Source: Opitutia bacterium
Lineage (GTDB): Bacteria; Verrucomicrobiota; Verrucomicrobiia; Opitutales; Opitutaceae
Assembly (NCBI GenBank): GCA_947478395.1
Contig: CANJVR010000001.1
Span: 608,001-672,000, forward strand
Reading direction: 5' to 3'
DNA length: 64,000 nt
Shown: positions 22,082 to 51,031 of the stretch, piece after piece
Layout of the letters: every line of letters begins with the position of its first letter
Numbering within the stretch: the stretch's first letter is position 1
The notes under the pieces: generated by a model
Told to the model about the DNA's origin: nothing
Databases searched by the model: none
Seen by the model: only the letters and a program-made list of their open reading frames with translations
Translations under genes and position numbers: made by a program

Positions 22082-22684
22082 CTACTGCCCACGCCGCAAA
22101 TTCGAATTCTGCGCCGCGCCGCTCTGCATCGGCGCGTTGGGCGCCGGGGCCGGAGCTTGCGCCGACGGCTGGGCCGGGCCCTGCGCATCCCGCAGCGCCC
22201 GCCGACGGCGAACCTCGGCGGCCACGTCGTCGAGGCGCTTCTGTTCGTCCGCGGGCGTAGGACTCAGCACGACACTTTGCGTCACGAGATTCGGACCGCC
22301 CGGCGCAGCGGGCACGGGCAAAGGCATCACGGCCTGGCCCGACGACGCGACTTTCGCTTCCCGCATCGACAAATTGAAAGTGCGGCCGCCCTGCTCGACC
22401 GTCACGGATTCCTTCGTCGAGTTCTGGCCTTTGATGACGAAACCATTGCCCTGTTCCTCCGGCTTAACCCACGTCCCCTTCCCCTTCGCCGTGTCGTAGA
22501 TGTAATACTGCACGACATTGCCCAACGCCATCACGCCTCGCAGCTCGATCAGCGAAGCCTCGGTCGAAGCGGCCGCGGCCGAACCTGGCACCGGCAGAAA
22601 TGGGGAATGGGTGGCGAGTTGCGCCCACGCCCCGCTGACGGACAACGCAACACCGGCCGCGAGCAGGAGACGTGGAACGTTCAT
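22082..22684 (-). CDS. Exported hypothetical protein with a small beta-rich domain (GspC/PilP-like?)
   Basis: Signal peptide ending AWA; SPFLP, ELRGVM, TWVK and VTVEQGGRTFNL; Pro/Gln-rich tail. Start set at MNVPRLL. Confidence 0.6.
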   Translation of the reverse strand: MNVPRLLLAAGVALSVSGAWAQLATHSPFLPVPGSAAAASTEASLIELRGVMALGNVVQYYIYDTAKGKGTWVKPEEQGNGFVIKGQNSTKESVTVEQGGRTFNLSMREAKVASSGQAVMPLPVPAAPGGPNLVTQSVVLSPTPADEQKRLDDVAAEVRRRRALRDAQGPAQPSAQAPAPAPNAPMQSGAAQNSNLRRGQ

Positions 22685-22912
22685 CGGGACAACCGAACAA
22701 GAACAAGACCATGCGCGGGTCAAGCGGAGTGAAGGCCATCCGGACGTCAACGATACCCTAGGTCGCGCGCCGCTTTTACCCGCGGGCCGGGAGGCCAAAT
22801 GTGGGCCACCGCTCCGCCGGACCCGAGCGCAGAACGTTCCATGATCATACGAAGTCGAAAAAATCGGCGGCCGCAGGCGACGGCCGGCCGATAAAAATTA
22901 AAACTCGCTTTG

Positions 22913-32274: not shown

Positions 32275-33183
32275 TCATTTCGCCGGCTCAATGTGCACGC
32301 TGACGTCGCTGATGGCGTGGCGGCCAGACGCGAGGAGCGCATCTTTCACCGCATGGGCGATATCATGGCCGGCACGCACCGTAAGTTCGCCGTCCACGCG
32401 CACCTGGATGTCAACGAGGTGACTTAGCCCGCTCTTGCGCACCCGAACCTTGTCCAGCGCGGCGACTCCCGGCACGGCCAGCGCGAGCGCGCGGACCTCG
32501 TTTTCAAAATCCTGTGCGACCGCCGTGTCCATCACGTCGCGGAGCGCCTTGCCGAACATGCCGACGCCGTTGAACGAAATCACGACGCACGCAAAAAGCG
32601 CCGCCCAGTCGTCGGCCGTCTCCCAGCCCTTGCCGCCCCACAGCGCAATAACGATACCCACGAAGGCTGCGGCCGAAGTCATCGCATCGGACCAATGGTG
32701 CAGCGCCTCGACGCCGAGCGCCGTGCTGCCGACCTCCTCGCCGGCCGCCTCCATCCGGCGCGAGAAAATCATCTTCACCACAATCACGCCCGCTAGCACC
32801 AGCAGTGTCCACCACGCCGGACCCTGATGCGGCGTGATGATCTCGTGCACCGCGTAGACTGCGATCCAGCCGGCCATCACGAAAACAAAGAGCGCCACCG
32901 CCAGCGCCGCGAGCGGCTCCGCCTTGCCGTGACCGTACGGATGATCCGCATCCGGCGGCCGCGCCGCCACGCGGAAGCCGGCCCACACCAGCGTCGACGA
33001 CAGGATGTCGAGCAACGACTCCGCCCCGTCCGCGATCAAAGCATACGTGTGGCCGAAAACCCCGCCCGCGATCTTGACCGCCGCGAGCGTCGCATTGAGC
33101 GCGATGCCGCGCAGCACGAGCCGCGCGCTGTCGTGGGCGCGCCTCTGCGTGGCGGCGTGTTGGCGGGCGATTGCAGTGGGCAC
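32275..33183 (-). CDS. Cation diffusion facilitator, FieF-like
   Basis: ALIADGAESLLD, HPYGHGKAE, HHWSD, GHDIA and VHIEP. Confidence 0.93.
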   Translation of the reverse strand: MPTAIARQHAATQRRAHDSARLVLRGIALNATLAAVKIAGGVFGHTYALIADGAESLLDILSSTLVWAGFRVAARPPDADHPYGHGKAEPLAALAVALFVFVMAGWIAVYAVHEIITPHQGPAWWTLLVLAGVIVVKMIFSRRMEAAGEEVGSTALGVEALHHWSDAMTSAAAFVGIVIALWGGKGWETADDWAALFACVVISFNGVGMFGKALRDVMDTAVAQDFENEVRALALAVPGVAALDKVRVRKSGLSHLVDIQVRVDGELTVRAGHDIAHAVKDALLASGRHAISDVSVHIEPAK

Positions 33184-33317
33184 CCCTCCAACTTACGAAT
33201 CCGCGCCAACGCCGCGCGAGACCGGAATCGGCGAACCCACGCAACCGGTAACCGCGGCGCCACCAGCCTCGCGACCTCCGCGTTGACCCGCGTGCCGCGA
33301 CCGTCATCGTGGCGGCC

Positions 33318-33773
33318 ATGGCGGATAATAGCATACTCATCGCGACCGATCCGGTGCGCCAGTTCTCCGTCTTCGTCGAAAATCGGGTTGGCCGGCTGCA
33401 CGAACTGACCGCGCTCCTAAAATCGAACAATGTTCACATTATGGCGATCACGGTGCTGGATTCGACAGACAGCACGATTGTGCGTCTCGTCGTCGACGAT
33501 CCGGACAAAGCCCGCGAGCTCATGGTGAATAATGATTTTCCCTACACCGAATGCCCCGTCCTCGCCGTCGAAATTGCCGATGAATCCGATCTGAAGTCCG
33601 TGCTGGCCGCGCTACTCGAGGCGGAGATCAATATTCATTATATCTACAGCTTTATCAAACGACCCGAAGGTCGCGCCGCTCTCGCCATCAGCGCCGAGGA
33701 TGCCGACACCGCCACGCAGTCACTCGGTCTCCACGGCTTTCGCACGCTGACGCAGAGCGATATTTCGCGATAG
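33318..33773 (+). CDS. Tandem ACT domain protein
   Basis: QFSVFVENRVGRL, RLVVDDPDKA and EINIHYIYSF. Confidence 0.88.
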   Translation: MADNSILIATDPVRQFSVFVENRVGRLHELTALLKSNNVHIMAITVLDSTDSTIVRLVVDDPDKARELMVNNDFPYTECPVLAVEIADESDLKSVLAALLEAEINIHYIYSFIKRPEGRAALAISAEDADTATQSLGLHGFRTLTQSDISR

Positions 33774-41451: not shown

Positions 41452-42651
41452 TCAGGCGTAACCGCCGCCTTGCTTGATGCCGAGCGCTTGACGGCGCGCG
41501 CGACGATCGGCGGCGGCGGCTTTTTGATAGCCGCTGCGGCGATGCTCGGCGAGCGGATCGGCGGCGAGTTTGTTTGCCTTGCGCCACGCGGCGAGCGCGG
41601 GCGACACATCGGTGAAGAACGCTTTTTTCAATTCGAGCTCAGCGTCGACAACGTTATTTTTCGCCTGCGCCCGGCGAAGTGCGTCGTGGTCAACGAGTGC
41701 GGCTTTCGCGAAAAGCTCCTGGGCCATGATCACAGTCTGGATGGTCGCCTCGATCTTCGGCTTTTCGTTGTGCGACTGGTCGATCATGTAGGCGATTTTC
41801 GGCGCGCGACCGCGATCGGCGGCAAAGAAATGGATCTCGTGAAAAATCCGGAAGACTTGGTACGGATCGATCGAGCCGAGCGTGAGATCGTCATCGGCGT
41901 AGCGACGGTCGTTGAAATGGAAACCGCCGAGCATGTCCTCATCGAGGAGCCACGCAACGATCTGCTCGATGTTCTGCGCGGCGTAGTGATGGCCGGTATC
42001 GACGAGCACCTTGGCGCGCGGACCGGCTTTTTTAGAAAGCAAATACGACATACCCCAGTCGGCCACGTCGGTCGCGTAAAACGCGGGCTCGAACGGTTTG
42101 TATTCCACGAGCATCGTCTGCTTCGGGCCAATCTCTTTGTGCAATGCCTTGAGACATTCCTCGAAGTAGCCTTTGCGCGCGCGGATGCTCGCCTGTCCGG
42201 GATAATTCGTGCCGTCGGCAAACCAGAGGGAAAGATATTCGCTGCCGGTCGCCTGCATGATCGCGACTGAATCGAGACAATGGTCGAGCGCACGCTGGCG
42301 GACGGCCGGATCGTTGTGGCCGAAGGAACCCCACTTGTATTCCTGGTCTTGAAAAAGGTTGGGGTTGATCGATCCGATCTTCACGCCGTGCTTGCGCGCG
42401 AGACGGGCCACCGCTTTCGGATCCTCGCCGGTCTTAAAATCCCACAACACATGAACTGCCACGGTCGGGCAGCAACCGGTCAGCGCATGCACGTGGCCGG
42501 CGTCGGAAAGTTTGTCCCCGAGATCGATGGCAGAGGCATCCTGGAAAAATTTCCCGAAGCGGGTGCCGGTGTCGGCAAAACCCCAGGAGGGCGTCTCGAT
42601 GGCAAAATCACTGAGCGCCTCAATGGCGCGGCGGCGGAGTTTGGGTGTCAT
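41452..42651 (-). CDS. L-rhamnose isomerase, RhaI-like xylose-isomerase fold
   Basis: IETPSWGF..TGTRF, INPNLF, W.ADG.NYPG, EYKPFEP, DWG, DTGHH, HFND..YADDDL and DQSH. Start set at MTPKLRR. Confidence 0.85.
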   Translation of the reverse strand: MTPKLRRRAIEALSDFAIETPSWGFADTGTRFGKFFQDASAIDLGDKLSDAGHVHALTGCCPTVAVHVLWDFKTGEDPKAVARLARKHGVKIGSINPNLFQDQEYKWGSFGHNDPAVRQRALDHCLDSVAIMQATGSEYLSLWFADGTNYPGQASIRARKGYFEECLKALHKEIGPKQTMLVEYKPFEPAFYATDVADWGMSYLLSKKAGPRAKVLVDTGHHYAAQNIEQIVAWLLDEDMLGGFHFNDRRYADDDLTLGSIDPYQVFRIFHEIHFFAADRGRAPKIAYMIDQSHNEKPKIEATIQTVIMAQELFAKAALVDHDALRRAQAKNNVVDAELELKKAFFTDVSPALAAWRKANKLAADPLAEHRRSGYQKAAAADRRARRQALGIKQGGGYA

Positions 42652-42851
42652 GATGGAAAGTAGGTTGTGCAACGCACGCCCGACGATGTCAGGCGCGAAA
42701 GTTCCTTGGACAGTCACGATGCCAACGCCACGGCCGCTAAGGACCGATCCGAAAATCCTCGGCCCGTCAGTCAGCCCACCGAGCTGACCGACGACCCGAT
42801 CAATCGAGACCTTGGCTTGCGTCTCAATCACGGCGGGTTGAGATCGGAACG

Positions 42852-43583
42852 GTGGCTCCCCAGAAGCTTTCCGTCATCATCCCGACCTGCAACGAGGCCA
42901 CCACGCTCGCCGAGATCATTGCGCGGGTCCGCGCAACCGGGCTGGTCGACGAAATCATCGTCGTGGATGATGGTTCAACGGATGATTCGCCCGCGATTTT
43001 GACGCGCCTAGAAAACGCATCGTCGCCGCGCCTGCGGCTCCTGCGCCATGCGCGCCGGAGCGGAAAAGGCGCCGCGGTGCGCAGCGGTCTTGCCATTGTG
43101 ACCGGTGAACTCGTCCTGATTCAGGACGCCGATCTGGAATACGATCCCGCGGATTACGCTGCCCTGCTGGCGCCGTTTTCCGCAGCGGAAGTCCAGGCGG
43201 TTTATGGCTCAAGAAATCTGCGGGTGAATCCACGTTCGAGCGGCGCGTTTTATTGGGGCGGGCGATTGCTGAGTTGGGTGACCAACCGTTTGTACGGCTC
43301 GCGTCTCACCGATGAAGCCACCGGGTACAAGGTCGTGCGCGCCGCGCTGCTGCGCGACCTCGGCCTGGTCGAAAGCGGTTTTGAGTTTTGTCCTGAGGTC
43401 ACGGCCAAACTCATCCGTCGCGGCGTGCCCATTCACGAAGTACCGATCACGTACCGGCCCCGTACGCGGGCCGCGGGGAAAAAAATCCGCTGGCACGACG
43501 GCATTACGGCCATCTGGACGCTGATAAAATATCGCGGCGCGAATGGCCGGCCAAAAATCGCAGACCGACCGGAGTCATCCTGA
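42852..43583 (+). CDS. GT2 glycosyltransferase, DPM1/polyprenol-phosphate sugar synthase-like
   Basis: IIPTCNE, VDDGSTD, GKGAA, IQDADLEYDP, YGSR, EVPITY.PR and KKIRW.DG. Confidence 0.9.
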   Translation: MAPQKLSVIIPTCNEATTLAEIIARVRATGLVDEIIVVDDGSTDDSPAILTRLENASSPRLRLLRHARRSGKGAAVRSGLAIVTGELVLIQDADLEYDPADYAALLAPFSAAEVQAVYGSRNLRVNPRSSGAFYWGGRLLSWVTNRLYGSRLTDEATGYKVVRAALLRDLGLVESGFEFCPEVTAKLIRRGVPIHEVPITYRPRTRAAGKKIRWHDGITAIWTLIKYRGANGRPKIADRPESS

Positions 43584-43742: not shown

Positions 43743-46244
43743 ATGGCGATAACGAGTCATCGCCGAGCGCGCTCCCGCCGGTTTCATTTTCTCGTTTGGC
43801 TTTCGGCTTTTGCCGTGGTGATCAGCTACGTCGTTTGGGATTCGGTCGCGCAGAGCCAGCATCTTTTGGAAACGAGCGGCCAATATGGTGTCGCCGTCGA
43901 CGCGCCCGCGATCGATCCGCATTCGGCCACGGGCTACGAACTCGGACGCCGCTCGTTGCTGCTGCCCGCCGGCGAGGCGGACACCGCACATTGGATCATG
44001 CAAACGCAGTCGATGATCGATCGCGGCGAGTGGCGGATCCGACATGTCGACTACGACAACGCTCCGCGCGGTCGTGAGGTACACTGGGCGATGCCCTTCC
44101 ACGCATGGCTGGCTGGGCTGGCCTGGATCGATCGCATCGTTTCGGACCGCCCGGCCGGTATTGCCGTCGAACGCGCCACGCTCCTGTCCGGCCCGGTCAT
44201 GCTCGCATTACTGCTGCTCGGACTCATGCCGTTTTTGAGCCGGAAATTCTCAACGATCGCGGCGGTGCTGGTCGCCATCGGTACCGTAACCACGTTTACG
44301 TTCTACCTCGATTTCATGCCGGCGCGGGCGGATCACCACGGACTCGCGATTATCTGCGGTTTATTCGTCGTGCTCTGCCTGGCGGCCGGTTCTTCGTTCG
44401 CGCCCCGTGTCGGAGCAAATCAAACGTCGGGCGCTGAAGATGAAATTCGCTCCGCGCGCTGGTGGTTTGCCGCATCGGGGCTGGCGGGTGGGCTGGGCTT
44501 GTGGGTGAGCGCCGCCACGACGGTACCGCTACTCGTCGGAGTAGGGCTCGGCCTGCTCAGCGGCGGTTGGATCGCGCGTCGTGCACCGGGATCACTGACC
44601 TGGATGAGGGTGCCGGGGTTGTGGCGGACCTGGGGCTGGGTCGGCGGCGGCACGAGCCTCGTCGCCTACACCATCGAATATTTCCCCAATTCCGCGGGTA
44701 TGCGGTTGGAGGTAAATCATCCGCTGTACGCCGCCGCCTGGGTCGGCGCCGGCGAACTGCTGCGCGCGGCGGTGATCGCGATGAACGCCGGGACCAAGAC
44801 ACTTTCTCGGCGTGATCTGAGCACCGCGACGGTGGCGGCCGGTTTGGTCACGCTTCTGCCGCTGGCTATATTCTTCACGGGAGAAAAAACATTCACGGTG
44901 TCAGATCCCTTCATCTGGCAATTACACTCGCGCTACATTTCAGAGTTTCAAAGCTTGGGCCGAAACTTCGCGGAGAAAGGCATTCATTGGGCAACCCTGG
45001 ACCTTTGCGGGCCCATGCTGTTCTTGATTCCGCCCATCGTTCTCCTGTTTCGGTCGGGCCCGTCGCGCGCGGTAAAAGCAGAACTTCTCCTCGTGGCCGT
45101 GCCGGCCTGGTTGGCGTGGGCGATGGGATGGAATCAGGTGCGCTGGCTCAGTTTGGCCTACGCGATGTCAGTGCCAGGGCTCGCGCTTTTCTTCCGCGCG
45201 CTCGAGGCCGAAAGCGGTGACGCGCGAAGGCGCCAGGTCGTCGCGTGGGCGGCGGCCTGCGGATTACTGATGCTTCCCGGCGCCATGAGCGCCGTGCAAC
45301 GAACCCTCACCAGTGCCGAATCCACCGCGACTGAGATTCGCCGCCTCGCAGAGCGCGATGTGGCGCACTGGTTGCGACTGCGCGGCGGTCCGGACCGCAC
45401 TGTCGTGGCGGCGGCGCCCATGCCGACGACGCGGCTGATTTCCGAAGGCGGGATGGCCGGATTGGGCACGCTCTATTGGGAAAATGCCGAAGGGCTCAAA
45501 AATACCGCGGCCCTTTTTGCCGCGAGCTCACCCGAGACGGCACGGGCTATGGTGCAACGACTCGGCGTGACTCACATCGTACTCTTTTCGTGGGACGCCT
45601 TCGAGATCACGTTGGCGAAACTCTATCGCGGCCTGCCGGAAAGCGCGCCGATCCCGCCGGATCTGTTCATCGCGAACCTGCTCGCCTCACCGCTGCCCCC
45701 GGCGTGGTTGCGGCCGGTCCCGTTTAAATTGCCAAATCACCCGTCGCTCACTGGGGCGCAGGTCCGTATCTGGGAAATTACGCCCGACCAATCGCCGGCG
45801 GAAGTCGCCGCTCACGCCGCGAACTATTATCTCGAGCTGGGCACGCCGGGTGTGAGCGCGACGTTCGCACCGCTGCTGGAAGGATTCGGCAACGACCTCG
45901 CCGCCACAGTCATGCGCGCAGCTCTCGCGGCGCGCGAACGGGACGGAGCCCGCTTCTCAGCCGCGCTCCAACCCGTGATGGCGCTCCTGCCCCGCGCCGG
46001 GACGCTCGCGCCCGAGGATCACGTTCATCTCGTGACGGTGCTCGCGATCGCGCAGCAAGCGGATCGGGCGCGCGAGCAATTGCAGGCGTGCATGAGAAAA
46101 ATCGACGAACGCAACCTGCGCCATTTCAGTACGGGTGCATTGACCGACTTGCTCGAGTTGTCGGCAGCATTGCAGGTGCCGCTGCCGAGCCCCGCGCTGC
46201 AACGACTGGCGGAAAAACTCGTGCCGCCGGCGAAGCGAAAATAG
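43743..46244 (+). CDS. Polytopic GT-C membrane protein, STT3/AglB oligosaccharyltransferase-like
   Basis: About 12-13 hydrophobic segments; DTAHW, DNAPRGREVHW, ADHHG, YISEFQ and QVRW motifs; soluble C-terminal domain containing LGVTHIV. Confidence 0.65.
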   Translation: MAITSHRRARSRRFHFLVWLSAFAVVISYVVWDSVAQSQHLLETSGQYGVAVDAPAIDPHSATGYELGRRSLLLPAGEADTAHWIMQTQSMIDRGEWRIRHVDYDNAPRGREVHWAMPFHAWLAGLAWIDRIVSDRPAGIAVERATLLSGPVMLALLLLGLMPFLSRKFSTIAAVLVAIGTVTTFTFYLDFMPARADHHGLAIICGLFVVLCLAAGSSFAPRVGANQTSGAEDEIRSARWWFAASGLAGGLGLWVSAATTVPLLVGVGLGLLSGGWIARRAPGSLTWMRVPGLWRTWGWVGGGTSLVAYTIEYFPNSAGMRLEVNHPLYAAAWVGAGELLRAAVIAMNAGTKTLSRRDLSTATVAAGLVTLLPLAIFFTGEKTFTVSDPFIWQLHSRYISEFQSLGRNFAEKGIHWATLDLCGPMLFLIPPIVLLFRSGPSRAVKAELLLVAVPAWLAWAMGWNQVRWLSLAYAMSVPGLALFFRALEAESGDARRRQVVAWAAACGLLMLPGAMSAVQRTLTSAESTATEIRRLAERDVAHWLRLRGGPDRTVVAAAPMPTTRLISEGGMAGLGTLYWENAEGLKNTAALFAASSPETARAMVQRLGVTHIVLFSWDAFEITLAKLYRGLPESAPIPPDLFIANLLASPLPPAWLRPVPFKLPNHPSLTGAQVRIWEITPDQSPAEVAAHAANYYLELGTPGVSATFAPLLEGFGNDLAATVMRAALAARERDGARFSAALQPVMALLPRAGTLAPEDHVHLVTVLAIAQQADRAREQLQACMRKIDERNLRHFSTGALTDLLELSAALQVPLPSPALQRLAEKLVPPAKRK

Positions 46245-46347
46245 CGCGGCTTAAGTTTCTCCGTCGCCTTTGAGTGTAGCGGCCGGCGTCTCTGCCTGCC
46301 CGGTTAGGCGAAGTCGATAGCGGGCACGTTTTGGTTAAACCGCTTTA
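46242..46347. mobile_element. Family C element, reversed and internally deleted
   Basis: TAGCGCGGCTTAAGTTTCTCCG...GTAGCGGCCGGCGTCTCTGCCTGCC...TTTTGGTTAAACCGCTTTA aligns with the reverse complement of 41257-41396. Confidence 0.65.
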
Positions 46348-48558
46348 ACGCGGCGTCGCGGGTAATTTTTCCAACATCGCGCGCGCAGCAGTGAATCCCG
46401 GATCAATTTTCAGCGCATCCTCAAAGCGCGCGCGTGCCTCGGGCCAACGTCCGGCCACCAGCAGCGCGTAACCAACATTGTAGTGGACCCGCGGATCGGC
46501 GGGACGCAGACGCAGCGCCGTCTCATAATGCGCGAGCGCTTCGGCACTGCGTTTCGCGTCGAGCAACGCGAGCGCGAGATTCGTGTGCGTTTCGGGCGCA
46601 TCGGGGCGGAGACGAACCGCTTGCTCCAGCTGGGCAATACCGTCGGTCAGCTTCCCCGTCTGGGCGAGCGCGATGCCGAGATTGAGGTGCGCATCGGCGT
46701 GGGCGGGATCGAGCCGGATGACCTCGGCGTACTGCGCCAGCGCCTCGTCCGTCCGACCGCTGCGCGCGAGAGCCTGCGCGAGATTGAAATGCGCCGCCGG
46801 CCAACCGGGCCGAAGGTGCAGCGCGGCGGTAAAATGCTCGATCGCCGCGGGCATGGAATTCGTCTGGAGCAGCGCCACGCCCCAATTGCTCTGGGCCTCG
46901 GCGTGCTGGGGATCGCCCTGCACGGCCAGCGCGTAATGTTCGATCGCCTCCGTCCAACGCCCGAGTGCCGCCAACGCCACCCCGAGTTGAAACTGTGCCT
47001 CGGCGGGAGCAGGATCGTAACGGATCGCCGCGGCAAAATGCGGGACCGCCTCCTGCGCCCGATCCAGTTTCATCAGCACGATTCCGAGATTAAGCTGCGC
47101 GTTGAAATAATACGGTAGGATGCGGACTGCCTCCGACAGAGGGGCGACGGCCTCGGCGAGTCGGCCGGTTTTCATCCAGGCGAGCCCGAGGTTGTAGTGC
47201 ACATGCGCATCGGAGGCGTCGAGGCGGAGCGATTCACGATAATGCGCGATGGCCTCGTCGAGTCGTTCGCTGCGATAAAGAATCAGGCCGAGGTTGCTAT
47301 GGGCGCGGGCATTGTCGGGACGCTTGGCCAGCGTGTCCTCCCACAAGCGCCGTTCGTCGCCATAGACCGCGTTTCGTCGCACCGTCATGACTCCCGCCGC
47401 GAGCGCGAGAACGGCGCTCGCCACGAGAAACGTGCGCGGTGGCCACCACCTCGCCGCCGCACCCAGTGCGAGCGCCACTGCGCCGGCCAGAGAAAGGTAA
47501 AGCCGGTGCTCTACGATCATCTGCAGCGCACCGGGCACGACACTGGTCGGCGCCAGCAGAGCGAAAAACCACGCTCCGCAAAATCCTACGATGGGCGCGC
47601 GCCACAACGCCACGACGGTGGCGCCCACCAACACCAGCACCGGAACGGACCACCCCGCGGCGGCAGCCAGAGCGGGAGGCGAAATTTTCCCGTAATCGAA
47701 AACCGACGGATGCGGCCAGACGACCAAACCCACATAGCGGGTGATCGCCTCGAATTGTGTGAGCCAGTAACCGGTCCACGAAACGCCGATGTCGAAGCCA
47801 ACGGTGCCGCCGCGATTCCCCCCTGTTTCGGCCAAAAGAATGGCCAGCGGCACCCACGTCGCCGCGAGCAGGAGCAGCGGCCAGCGATGACGTTGCCATG
47901 CCGCCGCGAAACCGCCGCTGACAAACGTTCGATCATAAAGCAGGATGAGCAACGGAGCGAGCGCCGTGACTTCCTTCGTGCCCACGCCCAACAGGCACGC
48001 GAGAAATGAAACCGTCCACCATCGCCACGGCTGCGACGAATCCACGCCGCGAATGAACGCATAGAGCGTAAGCAAAAAAAACAGCCCCATCAGCGATTCG
48101 GCGCGCTGCACGAGATACGTCACGGATTCGGTTTGCAGCGGGTGCAAGGTCCAGAGCGCCGCGATCGCCCACGCGACCGGCAAAGCACTGGACCGGAATC
48201 GCGCGGCGAGCGCCGGACGCAACAGTGTGCGCCGCACAATGCCGAACAAGGCGAGCCCGGCGAGCGTGTGGATTAAAAGATTAAACGCGTGATAGCTCCA
48301 GACGTTCGGTCCGCTGATCGCGTAGTTGATCGCGAGCGTGAGATTAAGGATGGGCCGGCCGCTCACCGTGAAGCCCCAACCCGCCGGCGGTGAGAGCGGG
48401 CCACTCAAAGGCCACAGCTGGCGGATCGTGGGGTTGTCCGCGATGGAAGCCACGTCGTCGAAGTGAAACGGAACGCGGAAGGTGTTCGCATAAGCTGCGA
48501 CCGCCGCGACGACGATCGTCAACGCCGCCAGCCGTAGTGCTCGATGACCGGGATTCAA
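46345..48558 (-). CDS. TMTC-like GT-C membrane protein with C-terminal TPR array (putative protein O-glycosyltransferase)
   Basis: FDD after TM1, RP..NLTLA.NY, HPLQTESVTY..QRAE, TKE, DY and EHRLY, then about 9 TPR units. Confidence 0.85.
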   Translation of the reverse strand: MNPGHRALRLAALTIVVAAVAAYANTFRVPFHFDDVASIADNPTIRQLWPLSGPLSPPAGWGFTVSGRPILNLTLAINYAISGPNVWSYHAFNLLIHTLAGLALFGIVRRTLLRPALAARFRSSALPVAWAIAALWTLHPLQTESVTYLVQRAESLMGLFFLLTLYAFIRGVDSSQPWRWWTVSFLACLLGVGTKEVTALAPLLILLYDRTFVSGGFAAAWQRHRWPLLLLAATWVPLAILLAETGGNRGGTVGFDIGVSWTGYWLTQFEAITRYVGLVVWPHPSVFDYGKISPPALAAAAGWSVPVLVLVGATVVALWRAPIVGFCGAWFFALLAPTSVVPGALQMIVEHRLYLSLAGAVALALGAAARWWPPRTFLVASAVLALAAGVMTVRRNAVYGDERRLWEDTLAKRPDNARAHSNLGLILYRSERLDEAIAHYRESLRLDASDAHVHYNLGLAWMKTGRLAEAVAPLSEAVRILPYYFNAQLNLGIVLMKLDRAQEAVPHFAAAIRYDPAPAEAQFQLGVALAALGRWTEAIEHYALAVQGDPQHAEAQSNWGVALLQTNSMPAAIEHFTAALHLRPGWPAAHFNLAQALARSGRTDEALAQYAEVIRLDPAHADAHLNLGIALAQTGKLTDGIAQLEQAVRLRPDAPETHTNLALALLDAKRSAEALAHYETALRLRPADPRVHYNVGYALLVAGRWPEARARFEDALKIDPGFTAARAMLEKLPATPR

Positions 48559-48979
48559 CCGGCAGATTTTGCGAAGCGCGTGGCGTGTGAGTCAACGCAG
48601 CGGGATGCCGCTCGTCGCAGGAAAAACCACGACCTATGGCGGGTCGGCGAAAGACCCAAAGGCGATTGAACCGCTAAAGGGATTAGCCAACGGGCGAATC
48701 TACGACGACCGGTTCAGCCAATCGCCTCCAGTGCCCGTGACTGAGGCGGGTGATCCCTGCCGGGGTTTATCCTGGAGAAATCTTCCGCGCGGGTCGGACG
48801 CCCAGCCCTGACTGCGCAGGCGATCAGCCGAAGCCGCTGATCAGAAGGTTTTCTCATCGGGAAAATTCGATCAGCGATTCCCAACCGGACTTTGAACGGT
48901 TTAATCAGAAACGTAGCCGCTACACCAAACGGCCATGGAAGAACTTAAAATGCGGCAGGAGCTGTTTCGACGAGCCAAC

Positions 48980-51031
48980 CTACCGCGGCCGGGTCGGTCC
49001 CTGTAATTCAAGCGCGCGGGCAAGGTTTTCCTGAACCGCCCGGTCCTCGGGCCGCTCCTTTAGAATTCGGCGATATTGGAGGATGGCGGCCTCGGTGCGG
49101 CCGCTCACGAGGAGCGCATTGGCGAGGTTATTTCGCGCGGCCAGATAACCCGGGGCGAGATCCGTTGCCCGTTCGTAGTGACCGATCGCCGTCGGAAAAT
49201 CTCCGCCGGCCGCCGCCAGATTTCCGAGGAAGTAGAGCAACTCGGGGTAATCGGCCTTAAGTTTCAGCGCCCGCTCAGCCGCGCGGCGCGCCGCCGCTGG
49301 ATCACCTTGTTGCTGCAAGGCGTGCGCGAGCGCATACCACGTTTCAACGCGATTCGGGTCGAGTTCGGCGGCGTTCTTCAACTGCTCGATCGCTGGCGCC
49401 AGCCGCTTCATTTTCAGCCAGGTCGCACCGAGCGCCGCATGAATATCGGCGGCGTCCGGGTCGAGACGAAGCGCAGCTTCATAGTGCACCGCGGCATCTG
49501 CCGATCGGCCAAGACGGTCGAGCAGATAACCCAGATTGACCTCGGCATCGGCGCGCTTGGGATTGAACCGAATGGCTGCTTCGTAAGCCACTACAGCCTC
49601 GTCGGCCGCAGCGGTTTTTTCGAGCAACTGCCCCAGGTTGTAGTAAGCGGACGCGTAACGCGGATCGAGACGCAGCGCGGTCGCGAAATGGGTGCGCGCT
49701 TCCTCATTGCGCCCTGCGGTGAAAAGATAGGCGCCGAGATTGTTATGCGCCCGGGCGCTTGCCGGATTTTTGCGGATCACGTCCTCCCACAACCCCTGCG
49801 GCGAACGATAGTCGAAATTGCGCACCGCCGTGGTGATGCCCAACGCGAGCGCGACGCCCAGCGCCCCAACGCGGACCGTTGCAGCGGACATCGAGAATAA
49901 CCCCAGTGCGCCGAGCGCGATTACCGCGGCGAGCGGAAGGTACATGCGATGCTCGACCATCGCATCAGCGACGGGCACCACGCTGGACGTCGGAGCCAGT
50001 ATCACAAAAAACCACGCGCCCAGAAATCCCAGCATCGGCCGACGAACAAGCAGATAGATGGTCGCAGCCAAAAGCCCGAGCAGGACAAAGGCTTGGGGCC
50101 AGACTTCATTCAGACCCGTGGCGAGCCGGAGATTGTGATCGAAGATCAACGGGTGCGGCCACACCGCGAGTTTCAGGTAAGCGAGGATGACCTGACACTG
50201 GGTCAGCGCGTAATTCCAGGCACTCATACCGGTTTCAAATCCCGCCGTGCCTCCGCGTCCGCCCGAAGCTTTCATCAAACCGAGCAGCAAAAGCCACGTG
50301 CTCATCAACGCTCCATAAAACCAACGCCGGCGCTGCCACACCTCGCGCCAGGTCGCAGCGACAAACGTCCGATCGTAGAGCATCACCACGAGAGGCGCGG
50401 TCACCATCACCTCCTTGCAACCCATTCCAGTCAGACAGGCAACGAAGGCCGTGCCCTGCCATCGCCCCGGGTGGGCCGCGTCGATCGACCGGACAAAAAA
50501 ATACAGCGTAAGCAGGTAGCAAAGCCCCATCAGTGACTCGACCCGCTGCACGAGATAGGTCACGGACTCCGTTTGGAGTGGATGAAGGCTCCACCAGCCC
50601 GCAATCACGAGGGCCAGCACCACCGCCCGATCGCCCCAGCGCGCGAGCAACACGGGCCGCAGCAGCGTGCGGCGCACGAGGCCGAACAACGTTAAACCTG
50701 CGAGCAGGTGGATCAGGAGATTGACCGCGTGATAACTCCAAAGCGCGGAGCCACTGATCGCATAATTCAGAGCGAGGGTCAGGTTGGGAACGGGCCGGCC
50801 CGAGAGCGTTCCGCCTTGGGGACCGATGGCGACGAGGAATAAATCCCAACGCGTGAGATCGCGGATTGTGGGGTTGTTCGCGATGCCGGGAATGTCATCG
50901 AAAACGAGCGCGCCATTAAAACTGGTGGCGTACGCCAAAACGGTGACGGCGATCAGCAGCCGTGCGGACCACTTTACAGAACCCTGCGCGCCTAACGAAT
51001 AATTCCAAAACGGTAGGGGTCGTGGCACCAT
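48980..51031 (-). CDS. Second TMTC-like GT-C/TPR protein, paralog
   Basis: FDD, RP.PNLTLALNY, HPLQTESVTY..QRVE, CKE and EHRMY, then about 7 TPR units. Confidence 0.85.
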   Translation of the reverse strand: MVPRPLPFWNYSLGAQGSVKWSARLLIAVTVLAYATSFNGALVFDDIPGIANNPTIRDLTRWDLFLVAIGPQGGTLSGRPVPNLTLALNYAISGSALWSYHAVNLLIHLLAGLTLFGLVRRTLLRPVLLARWGDRAVVLALVIAGWWSLHPLQTESVTYLVQRVESLMGLCYLLTLYFFVRSIDAAHPGRWQGTAFVACLTGMGCKEVMVTAPLVVMLYDRTFVAATWREVWQRRRWFYGALMSTWLLLLGLMKASGGRGGTAGFETGMSAWNYALTQCQVILAYLKLAVWPHPLIFDHNLRLATGLNEVWPQAFVLLGLLAATIYLLVRRPMLGFLGAWFFVILAPTSSVVPVADAMVEHRMYLPLAAVIALGALGLFSMSAATVRVGALGVALALGITTAVRNFDYRSPQGLWEDVIRKNPASARAHNNLGAYLFTAGRNEEARTHFATALRLDPRYASAYYNLGQLLEKTAAADEAVVAYEAAIRFNPKRADAEVNLGYLLDRLGRSADAAVHYEAALRLDPDAADIHAALGATWLKMKRLAPAIEQLKNAAELDPNRVETWYALAHALQQQGDPAAARRAAERALKLKADYPELLYFLGNLAAAGGDFPTAIGHYERATDLAPGYLAARNNLANALLVSGRTEAAILQYRRILKERPEDRAVQENLARALELQGPTRPR

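Follow-up and report, generated by a model that had tools for sequence, protein, structure and literature searches.

An 833-residue protein is encoded at 43743..46244 on the forward strand of a 64,000-nucleotide stretch of an Opitutia bacterium genome (family Opitutaceae; contig CANJVR010000001.1, positions 608,001 to 672,000; hereafter the window). As judged from sequence, it represents a widespread and unnamed bacterial branch of the Asn-glycosylating enzymes in which the catalytic machinery is kept and the Asn-X-Ser/Thr pocket is replaced. We favor, with modest confidence, an active, metal-dependent inner-membrane glycosyltransferase of the AglB/STT3 lineage that would modify exported proteins in the periplasm using a lipid-monophosphate sugar, without reading N-X-S/T. 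This reading is based on the observed fold, residue equivalences, conservation, family-wide loss of the Ser/Thr pocket and gene linkage. The targets would probably be exported proteins that are glycosylated by a rule other than Asn-X-Ser/Thr. The case for a protein glycosyltransferase in this unannotated subfamily is strong but indirect.

[quoted passage not shown] The present family keeps the catalytic residues across several bacterial classes and has discarded the pocket, and would provide a natural test of metal and twisted-amide chemistry without a +2 anchor. It also bears on how N-, C- and perhaps O-linkages arose from a single fold. Should the family glycosylate proteins, it would point to an undescribed pathway in Verrucomicrobiota that are abundant in soil and freshwater, and would give glyco-engineering a single-subunit transferase that follows new site rules. 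No description of the family was found in the literature, which was covered mostly through open-access articles; in the excerpt of an AglB phylogeny, WWD is not mentioned and Verrucomicrobia appears once (PMC4973528).

Fold and catalytic residues

The protein combines a GT-C (glycosyltransferase fold C) membrane part with a periplasmic dome and a tail resembling tetratricopeptide repeats (TPRs).

43743..46244, + strand: gene for the AglB-derived GT-C protein, 833 residues; ATG start, 13 predicted membrane helices, periplasmic dome, TPR-like tail
45318..45788, + strand: periplasmic dome domain, residues 526–682; AglB/STT3/DPY19 core fold
45789..46229, + strand: TPR-like helical tail, residues about 683–829; OGT and designed TPR fold matches (Z about 10), Pfam TPR in homologues

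The AlphaFold model of the protein, built from 118 relatives, has a pLDDT of 95.2, and the dome folded alone reaches 95.5. The helix count was read off the model helices together with AglB homology. The whole model is matched best by AfAglB (Z 21.8), STT3A (20.4), CeDPY19 (19.0) and PglB (15.3), and Foldseek concurs; ALG12 (16.6), ArnT (16.1) and Pmt4 (15.7) are matched over fewer residues of the model. The top matches of the predicted fold are all protein glycosyltransferases of one clan. The dome alone ranks its matches similarly, with Z values of 14.4 for AfAglB-S2, 13.3 for AfAglB-L, 12.8 for STT3B, 12.0 for CeDPY19 and 11.4 for PglB.

Profile comparison leads to the same relatives. A family core profile of 87 rows (22–61% identity) was compared with a control profile of 65 AglB proteins, which matches AfAglB-L at E 8.5e-143 and carries WWD in 59 of its 65 members. 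The two profiles align over 501 columns with a probability of 99.0% and E 7.3e-18. The best fold and profile matches are therefore AglB and STT3, rather than an unrelated fold or another GT-C family. Simpler searches find little. The 833-residue protein alone matches no Pfam family and no PDB sequence, and scores 14.7 bits against the archaeal OST model TIGR04154, whose cut-off is 450. The family profiles retrieve from PDB sequences weak AglB-S2 and STT3A matches (E 0.0015–3) or TPRs only, and the 87 dome domains have no meaningful Pfam match. PF02516 is narrowly passed by 13 of the 32 members scanned, all 13 of which had been chosen for already carrying the PF02516 tag; such narrow Pfam STT3 passers among the homologues may be annotated as OSTs elsewhere.

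In AfAglB, the metal is bound by D47, D161 and H163, with E360 contributing via water, and H81 and R426 lie near the phosphate; the enzyme uses a monophosphate donor and its Ser/Thr pocket is formed by WWDYG and DK/MI (PMC8342417). An earlier note on this stretch, made from the sequence alone, had listed an ordered AglB-like catalytic set, and the profile alignment places these residues onto those of AglB. Each motif of that list is found where it had been located, namely D80-T-A-H-W, DYDNAP at 103, D197-H-H, Y398-I-S-E401, Q465-V-R467, AAPMPT at 557, LYWENAEG at 577 and MVQRLGVTHIV at 603, a combination that sequence comparison puts far beyond chance. The residues are assigned below by external loop (EL) or transmembrane helix (TM); ten of the 87 rows form a variant clade described in the next section, and most counts refer to the 77 non-variant members.

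43980..43982, + strand: D80, EL1 acid (equivalent to AfAglB D47 and DPY19 E71); Asp in 76 of 77, the other being a gap
44082..44084, + strand: H114 (AfAglB H81), from an ungapped reading against the AfAglB segment; His in 117 of 118 relatives
44331..44339, + strand: D197-H198-H199, EL2 metal motif (AfAglB D161-H162-H163), from the profile alignment
44502..44504, + strand: W254 (AfAglB W215), in the turn between TM5 and TM6; invariant, Trp in 128 of 128 rows
44934..44948, + strand: Y398-I-S-E401-F402, EL5 motif (TIXE; E401 equivalent to AfAglB E360); Glu in 77 of 77
45135..45146, + strand: Q465-V-R467-W468, EL6 (R467 equivalent to AfAglB R426 and DPY19 R471); Arg in 77 of 77

In the EL2 motif, D197 is kept in 73 of 77 rows (Glu in the other four), H198 in all 77 and H199 in 74. 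The first residue of the EL5 motif is Tyr, Phe or His rather than Thr, and I399-x-E401 is aligned with TV-x-E. W254 would correspond to the phosphate-binding Trp of STT3 and DPY19. The catalytic set is near-invariant over these 77 members, which come from several classes, and the 833-residue protein carries all of it. The closest named relatives of the protein belong to Opitutaceae. The 118 relatives (40–64% identity) show no variation at D80, H198, E401, R467 and W579-E-N581. Of the 87 members, 72 have the full set of eight residues D80, D197, H199, E401, R467, W579, E580 and N581.

The Ser/Thr pocket position and family-specific loops

Neither WWD nor W-x-D-x-G occurs anywhere in the protein. 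Three short segments distinguish this part of the family from AglB.

45414..45431, + strand: A558-P-M-P-T562 and T563, at the WWDYG(Y/H) position; P559 alone conserved, no Trp and no following Tyr
44703..44723, + strand: R321-LEVNH-P327, invariant EL4 loop; no counterpart in the AglB profile
45465..45485, + strand: G575-TLYWE-N581, invariant loop aligned with DGGK/NP; exceeds the loop of the AglB profile by three residues

The replacement of WWDYG by approximately AAPMPT (557–562), as proposed in the earlier note, is real, although the register is shifted to A558-P559-M560-P561-T562. Trp is found in columns 556–562 in none of the 87 core rows and in one of the 128 rows of a second, more distant set. 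Position 560 is occupied by Thr in 30, Asn in 17 and Ser in 7 of 77 rows. The residue that follows WWDYG, Y468 in PglB and Y521 in the yeast enzyme, binds the N-acetyl moiety of the donor (PMC7226087, PMC9701220). Its position is T563 here and is Tyr in none of the 87 rows, compared with 50 Tyr, 8 His and 1 Trp in 59 AglB controls. No conserved Lys was found near the DK position (617–625), where the register is uncertain since the AglB alignment ends just before DK/MI; the DK Lys is probably lost.

Because close and distant homologues alike lack WWDYG, while 59 of 65 controls have WWD, its loss appears to be a family trait rather than the decay of one copy, and the single degenerate copy considered in the earlier note is not what the homologue alignment finds. 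The loss also has a known precedent, as far as sequences tell, in the sister family DPY19, where the WWDYG position of CeDPY19 is taken up by a Pro and by residues that are small or hydrophobic. As judged from the conserved segments around it, the pocket has been remodeled rather than merely emptied. RLEVNHP and TLYWEN are as conserved as the catalytic residues. In CeDPY19, the loop H575-R584 holds the activated donor and its Y578 stacks on the acceptor Trp (PMC10154233). The 575–581 loop aligns gap-free with the H575-P-H-Y578-E loop of DPY19, with W579 on Y578 and E580 on E579.

Partly eroded forms of WWD (D-W-A-S-G, N-P-T-Y-G, W-W-M-G and W-P-L-G) were observed in AglB-like bacterial proteins (L138:1-2352:-, also P0312; L158:1-1701:+; L159:931-3318:+; P0376-P0378), and their sequences suggest that the Ser/Thr pocket has been relaxed repeatedly in bacteria. 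Two genomes from a single distant family of the phylum encode PglB-like proteins with W-W-D-N-G (L136:123-2279:+, L137:1189-3303:+).

The catalytic set is gone from the variant clade (10 of 87 rows, support 100), and the 833-residue protein lies outside this clade. Variation within the clade affects D80, H198/H199, E323/N325, E401, R467 and W579, whereas W254, H326 and N581 are mostly kept. Because E323/N325 and W579 vary together with the metal and phosphate positions, we infer that they face ligands. Variant copies from five genomes (L183-L202; G012, G108, G189, G213, G258) lack the catalytic set in all 20 checked among 26 matches listed, and the clade (L005-L013, L064:14746-16587) is expanded to up to 7–9 matches per genome. 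Its proteins are possibly diversified binding proteins or pseudoenzymes.

The C-terminal tail is real, as the earlier note had anticipated, and the family profile matches TPR proteins. It comprises at least 100 residues in 66 of the 87 members, is short in 19 and is cut by the locus end in 2. With the tail missing from those 19 members, the substrate selection that the note had suggested for it cannot hold family-wide.

Distribution and genomic neighborhood

At E 1e-30 or better, the family matches 646 representatives of clusters at the 50% identity level. Among 301 genomes of the phylum, 37 have a match at 1e-3 and 30 have one better than 1e-50; copy numbers are lower bounds because the scan scored three candidates per genome. 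Pirellulaceae and Eisenbacteria records contain members as well, and in the phylum of the planctomycete record (151 genomes) a strong match is found in that record's own genome only. The host genome (98.8% complete) contains one copy, has no match to PF02516, PF22627 or PF10034, and has no canonical OST. A tblastn search of plasmids with an AglB-like protein found nothing.

The genes flanking the 833-residue gene are as follows.

42852..43583, + strand: GT2 polyprenyl-phosphate sugar synthase-like protein, 243 residues; PF00535, best NCBIfam match AglJ (below cut-off)
46345..48558, − strand: TMTC-like GT-C and TPR protein 1, 737 residues; convergent, first-loop DD, TPRs; Atlas neighbors are PMT_2 and TMTC DUF1736 clusters
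48980..51031, − strand: TMTC-like GT-C and TPR protein 2, 683 residues
51174..54863, − strand: TonB-dependent receptor, 1229 residues; Plug domain, homologue in 25 of 75 related loci, conserved block in the clade

The GT2 gene lies just upstream on the same strand and encodes a candidate donor synthase. In TMTC-like protein 1, PF13231 exceeds its cut-off together with neighboring stretches. The first-loop DD motif is conserved in the TMTC-like proteins of the phylum. A literature search listed no functional study of these TMTC-like genes. Behind them the window contains two TonB-dependent receptors, of which the one listed is a candidate client, Lnt and SecA.

TMTC-like genes, which neighbor the family more commonly than any other genes, are present in 39 of the 75 related loci (38 under a stricter gene filter, with 30 directly adjacent) and, in other arrangements, in 7 of 8 loci that come from distant families within the phylum; in one of these eight (L165) the family gene was placed from the phylum genome scan. 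In 12 other regions, TMTC-like genes were found in 2, both from one genome. The host genome holds six such genes at five sites in 3.3 Mb (46345-51031 in the window, and C1:22502, C3:113257, C5:153944 and C7:31498), and the profile that finds them does not match the 833-residue protein. At this density, the chance of a TMTC-like gene in an 18-kb locus is roughly 3% by our own arithmetic, though relatives may have more copies. TMTC-like genes occur in 26 of the 30 genomes with a strong family match and in 129 of 301 overall, with related genomes not being independent. Other clades have co-directional arrays with TMTC-like genes, and the arrays of distant lineages adjoin genes for signal peptidase I and peptidyl-prolyl isomerases. 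In Chthoniobacterales, the family gene often lies just downstream of a giant hemagglutinin-like secreted protein; filamentous-hemagglutinin-like proteins (DUF3739) of 2300–2600 residues, which are candidate clients, are encoded directly upstream at L082:2-7729:+, L087:3-7016:+ and L101.

Further features surround the block. An L-rhamnose isomerase-like gene (41452-42831, − strand) is divergent from the GT2 gene, and the upstream flanks of L034-L073 carry pectin-use genes beside the block (rhamnose mutarotase, GDSL esterases, GH42/GH43 and sodium:solute symporters). Two long open reading frames of the window (32504-33430 and 22082-22798, both − strand) have no Pfam match and may be shadow frames. 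A promoter and terminator scan gave chance-level results. Exported proteins, predicted crudely, had motif counts that told nothing either way, both for N-x-S/T (795 versus 700 expected, against 1448 versus 1347 in other proteins) and for Trp motifs (WxxW 48, WxW 58, WxxxW 60).

Proposed reaction, alternative acceptors and known systems

In the proposed reaction, a GT2 enzyme would load a sugar onto polyprenyl monophosphate. The donor would bind at R467, H114 and W254, with an adjacent divalent metal on D80, D197 and H199, and E401 would complete the site as it does in AfAglB. A monophosphate donor is assumed because D-H-H is the motif of AfAglB, a monophosphate user; the reducing-end sugar, as far as the donor-site residues indicate, is probably of a kind other than N-acetylhexosamine. 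The polypeptide would run along the EL5 I-x-E strand, and the acceptor would be picked by the TLYWEN and RLEVNHP loops instead of a +2 hydroxyl, and in Opitutaceae-type members also by the TPR tail. The sugar would then be transferred with inversion. The enzyme could act in partnership with the TMTC-like transferases on secreted or outer-membrane proteins, with the neighboring TonB-dependent receptors as the first candidates.

We infer a protein acceptor from the TPR tail, the TMTC-like neighbors, nearby SecA and Lnt, signal peptidase I, peptidyl-prolyl isomerases and the giant secreted hemagglutinin-like genes. As to the linkage, Asn outside the canonical sequon is a tentative choice, slightly favored because both amide-flanking acids are kept; Ser or Thr, which the TMTC context favors, is a similarly tentative one, and an aromatic residue would be very unlikely. 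A more specific proposal, also tentative, is a sequon-free protein N-glycosyltransferase with a whole metal site, in which the new pocket and the TPR arm would choose the Asn. Together with the TMTC-like enzymes it would form a hitherto unrecognized, eukaryote-like system of protein glycosylation in Verrucomicrobiota, and it would represent an intermediate between OST and DPY19-type chemistry in which the pocket is rebuilt and the metal retained.

Several observations weigh against an active protein glycosyltransferase of this kind or loosen its genomic support. The metal and lipid-donor site, which the earlier note had considered retained, is confirmed for D80, D197-H-H199, E401 and R467, all of which fall on AglB residues. 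The EL2 Arg of AglB, STT3, PglB and DPY19, seven residues before the D-x-D/H motif, is however missing: none of the 87 members has Arg at position 190, compared with the pattern in 59 of 65 AglB controls, and the donor site thus appears not to be fully intact. The dome also matches the glycan- or lipid-acting enzymes AftA, AftD, ALG12 and ArnT (Z 4.8–7.1, with 5.6–7.1 for the first three), and the TPR tail is missing in the deepest branches. The GT2 linkage is weak: of 75 related loci, one has a close homologue, and L168 has one at 31% identity. Much of the 39 of 75 count derives from one related clade with the same convergent block, and the TMTC-like genes of the window, being convergent with the 833-residue gene, do not form one operon with it. 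TMTC-like genes are common in the phylum, and 4 of the 30 strong-match genomes have none. The non-canonical acceptor that the earlier note had suggested agrees with the preferred reading. Relative to that note, the EL2 Arg loss, the DPY19 precedent, the two invariant loops and the TMTC-like linkage are additional points.

The strongest alternative, still rather unlikely, is an acceptor that is a sugar or a lipid: the enzyme would extend or cap a protein sugar placed by the TMTC-like enzymes, or decorate lipopolysaccharide, a glycolipid or a wall polymer. The extension role would explain the TMTC-like linkage, the invariant Y578-W579 pair could stack on a sugar, and the dome fold of the glycan- and lipid-acting enzymes and the members without a TPR tail are compatible with it. 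The protein is nevertheless clearly nearer to AglB, STT3 and DPY19, all of which modify proteins, and keeps the EL5 I-x-E strand, which pairs with the peptide backbone in AglB (PMC8342417). The family gene is also rarely found in polysaccharide clusters; a sugar-nucleotide cluster adjoins it in 1 of 20 regions examined.

An enzyme that still glycosylates N-X-S/T, with the +2 hydroxyl read by a reconstructed pocket that might involve T562/T563, D618 or the YWEN loop, would retain a use for the amide-activating acids D80 and E401, would supply a genome that has no other OST, and could be compared with the AglB-like proteins of partly eroded WWD. It is improbable, as no conserved substitute for the WWD Trp or Asp is found, with position 560 divided among Thr, Asn and Ser, as the donor Tyr is missing, and as no conserved Lys is seen near the DK position, where the register is uncertain.

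Trp C-glycosylation of the DPY19 type is also quite improbable. DPY19 shares the fold, likewise lacks WWD and contributes the gap-free match of its acceptor loop; E401-F402 recalls its E400-F401, and a bacterial cluster that bears Dpy19 is listed for the 833-residue protein in the Atlas, with a feature score of 0.98. DPY19 is metal-independent and has no metal ligands (PMC10154233), and its R211 is essential (PMC6801728), whereas the present family keeps D-H-H and lacks counterparts of R211 and K473, the residues that hold Trp(+3). In place of the DPY19 R-x6-L-R-E motif the family has D-H-H without an Arg at 190, and position 469 is variable with Lys not among its commonest residues. The dome loop T-L-Y-W-E equals H-P-x-Y-E in length and has the aromatic–Glu pair without His-Pro. 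PF10034 was not matched in the host genome or in the 32 members scanned.

A separate bacterial family (L106-L135; for example L106:1138-3279:- and L112:1303-3390:-) is the real DPY19 relative. Its profile matches CeDPY19 at E 2.2e-20, and it keeps the EL1 Glu, R-x6-(S/R)-E-N-F, the EL6 Arg and an H-P-K-F-E loop; these proteins are candidate C-glycosyltransferases. PF10034 is matched in 60 of 301 phylum genomes (37 over the Pfam cut-off) and in 0 of 26 from the host's family. Against these proteins the present family profile scores E 1.8e-6 and the dome profile weakly (E 3.1e-4). A tree of 61 rows drawn as subsets from the alignments (22 family, 21 AglB-like, 14 DPY19-like, 2 PglB-like and 2 others, with no eukaryotic rows) recovers the family as one clade (SH-aLRT 99) not joined with the DPY19-like proteins. 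Its deep order is unresolved, and no direction of descent is therefore claimed. With an AglB match that is far better, the metal motif kept and the other family being the real relative, identification of the 833-residue protein as a bacterial DPY19 was rejected.

A degenerate or non-catalytic AglB copy (a scaffold or binding subunit) is most unlikely, for although the family contains a non-catalytic-looking clade and has lost the EL2 Arg, the 833-residue protein lies outside that clade and carries the whole catalytic set that is near-invariant in 77 members.

The preferred reading, a metal-dependent protein glycosyltransferase that does not read N-X-S/T, can be placed among known systems as follows. 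With AfAglB-L and the euryarchaeal-type AglB (PDB 3WAJ, 5GMY, 7E9S; PF02516 and PF22627; TIGR04154), the 833-residue protein shares the membrane-part and dome fold and, in order, the equivalents of D47, H81, D161-H162-H163, W215, E360 and R426. It differs in lacking WWDYG, the following Tyr/His, an R154 equivalent and probably a conserved DK Lys, and in having the three-residue YWE insertion in the NP loop, the RLEVNHP loop and the TPR tail, at an identity of about 12%. AglB belongs to CAZy family GT66. Eukaryotic STT3 (Z 17–20) and Campylobacter PglB (14.6–15.3) have the same fold and share the EL1 Asp, the EL2 acid, the EL5 Glu and the EL6 Arg, but use D-x-E or D-x-D in EL2, pyrophosphate donors and a WWD plus DK/MI Ser/Thr pocket.

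DPY19 (Trp C-mannosyltransferase; PDB 7ZLG-7ZLJ; PF10034; GT98) resembles the protein in fold (Z 18.6–19.0), in the missing WWD, in the EL6 Arg and in an active-site dome loop of equal length with an aromatic–Glu pair, but lacks a metal site and depends on R211 and K473 for WxxW. The O-mannosyltransferases TMTC1-4 and TMEM260 (GT105, GT117) likewise combine a GT-C membrane part with luminal TPRs, which are proposed to choose folded clients (PMC10214176, PMC7801869). This likeness is one of design and not of membership: they have 11 helices, belong to another GT-C branch and carry the TPRs directly after the membrane part, whereas the 833-residue protein follows the 13-helix AglB plan with the dome in between. 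Since donor and metal handling are AglB-like but WWDYG, the EL2 Arg and the DPY19 features are missing, the protein is filed, on its sequence features, as a distinct subfamily of the STT3/AglB/DPY19 clan that belongs to neither the OSTs nor DPY19.

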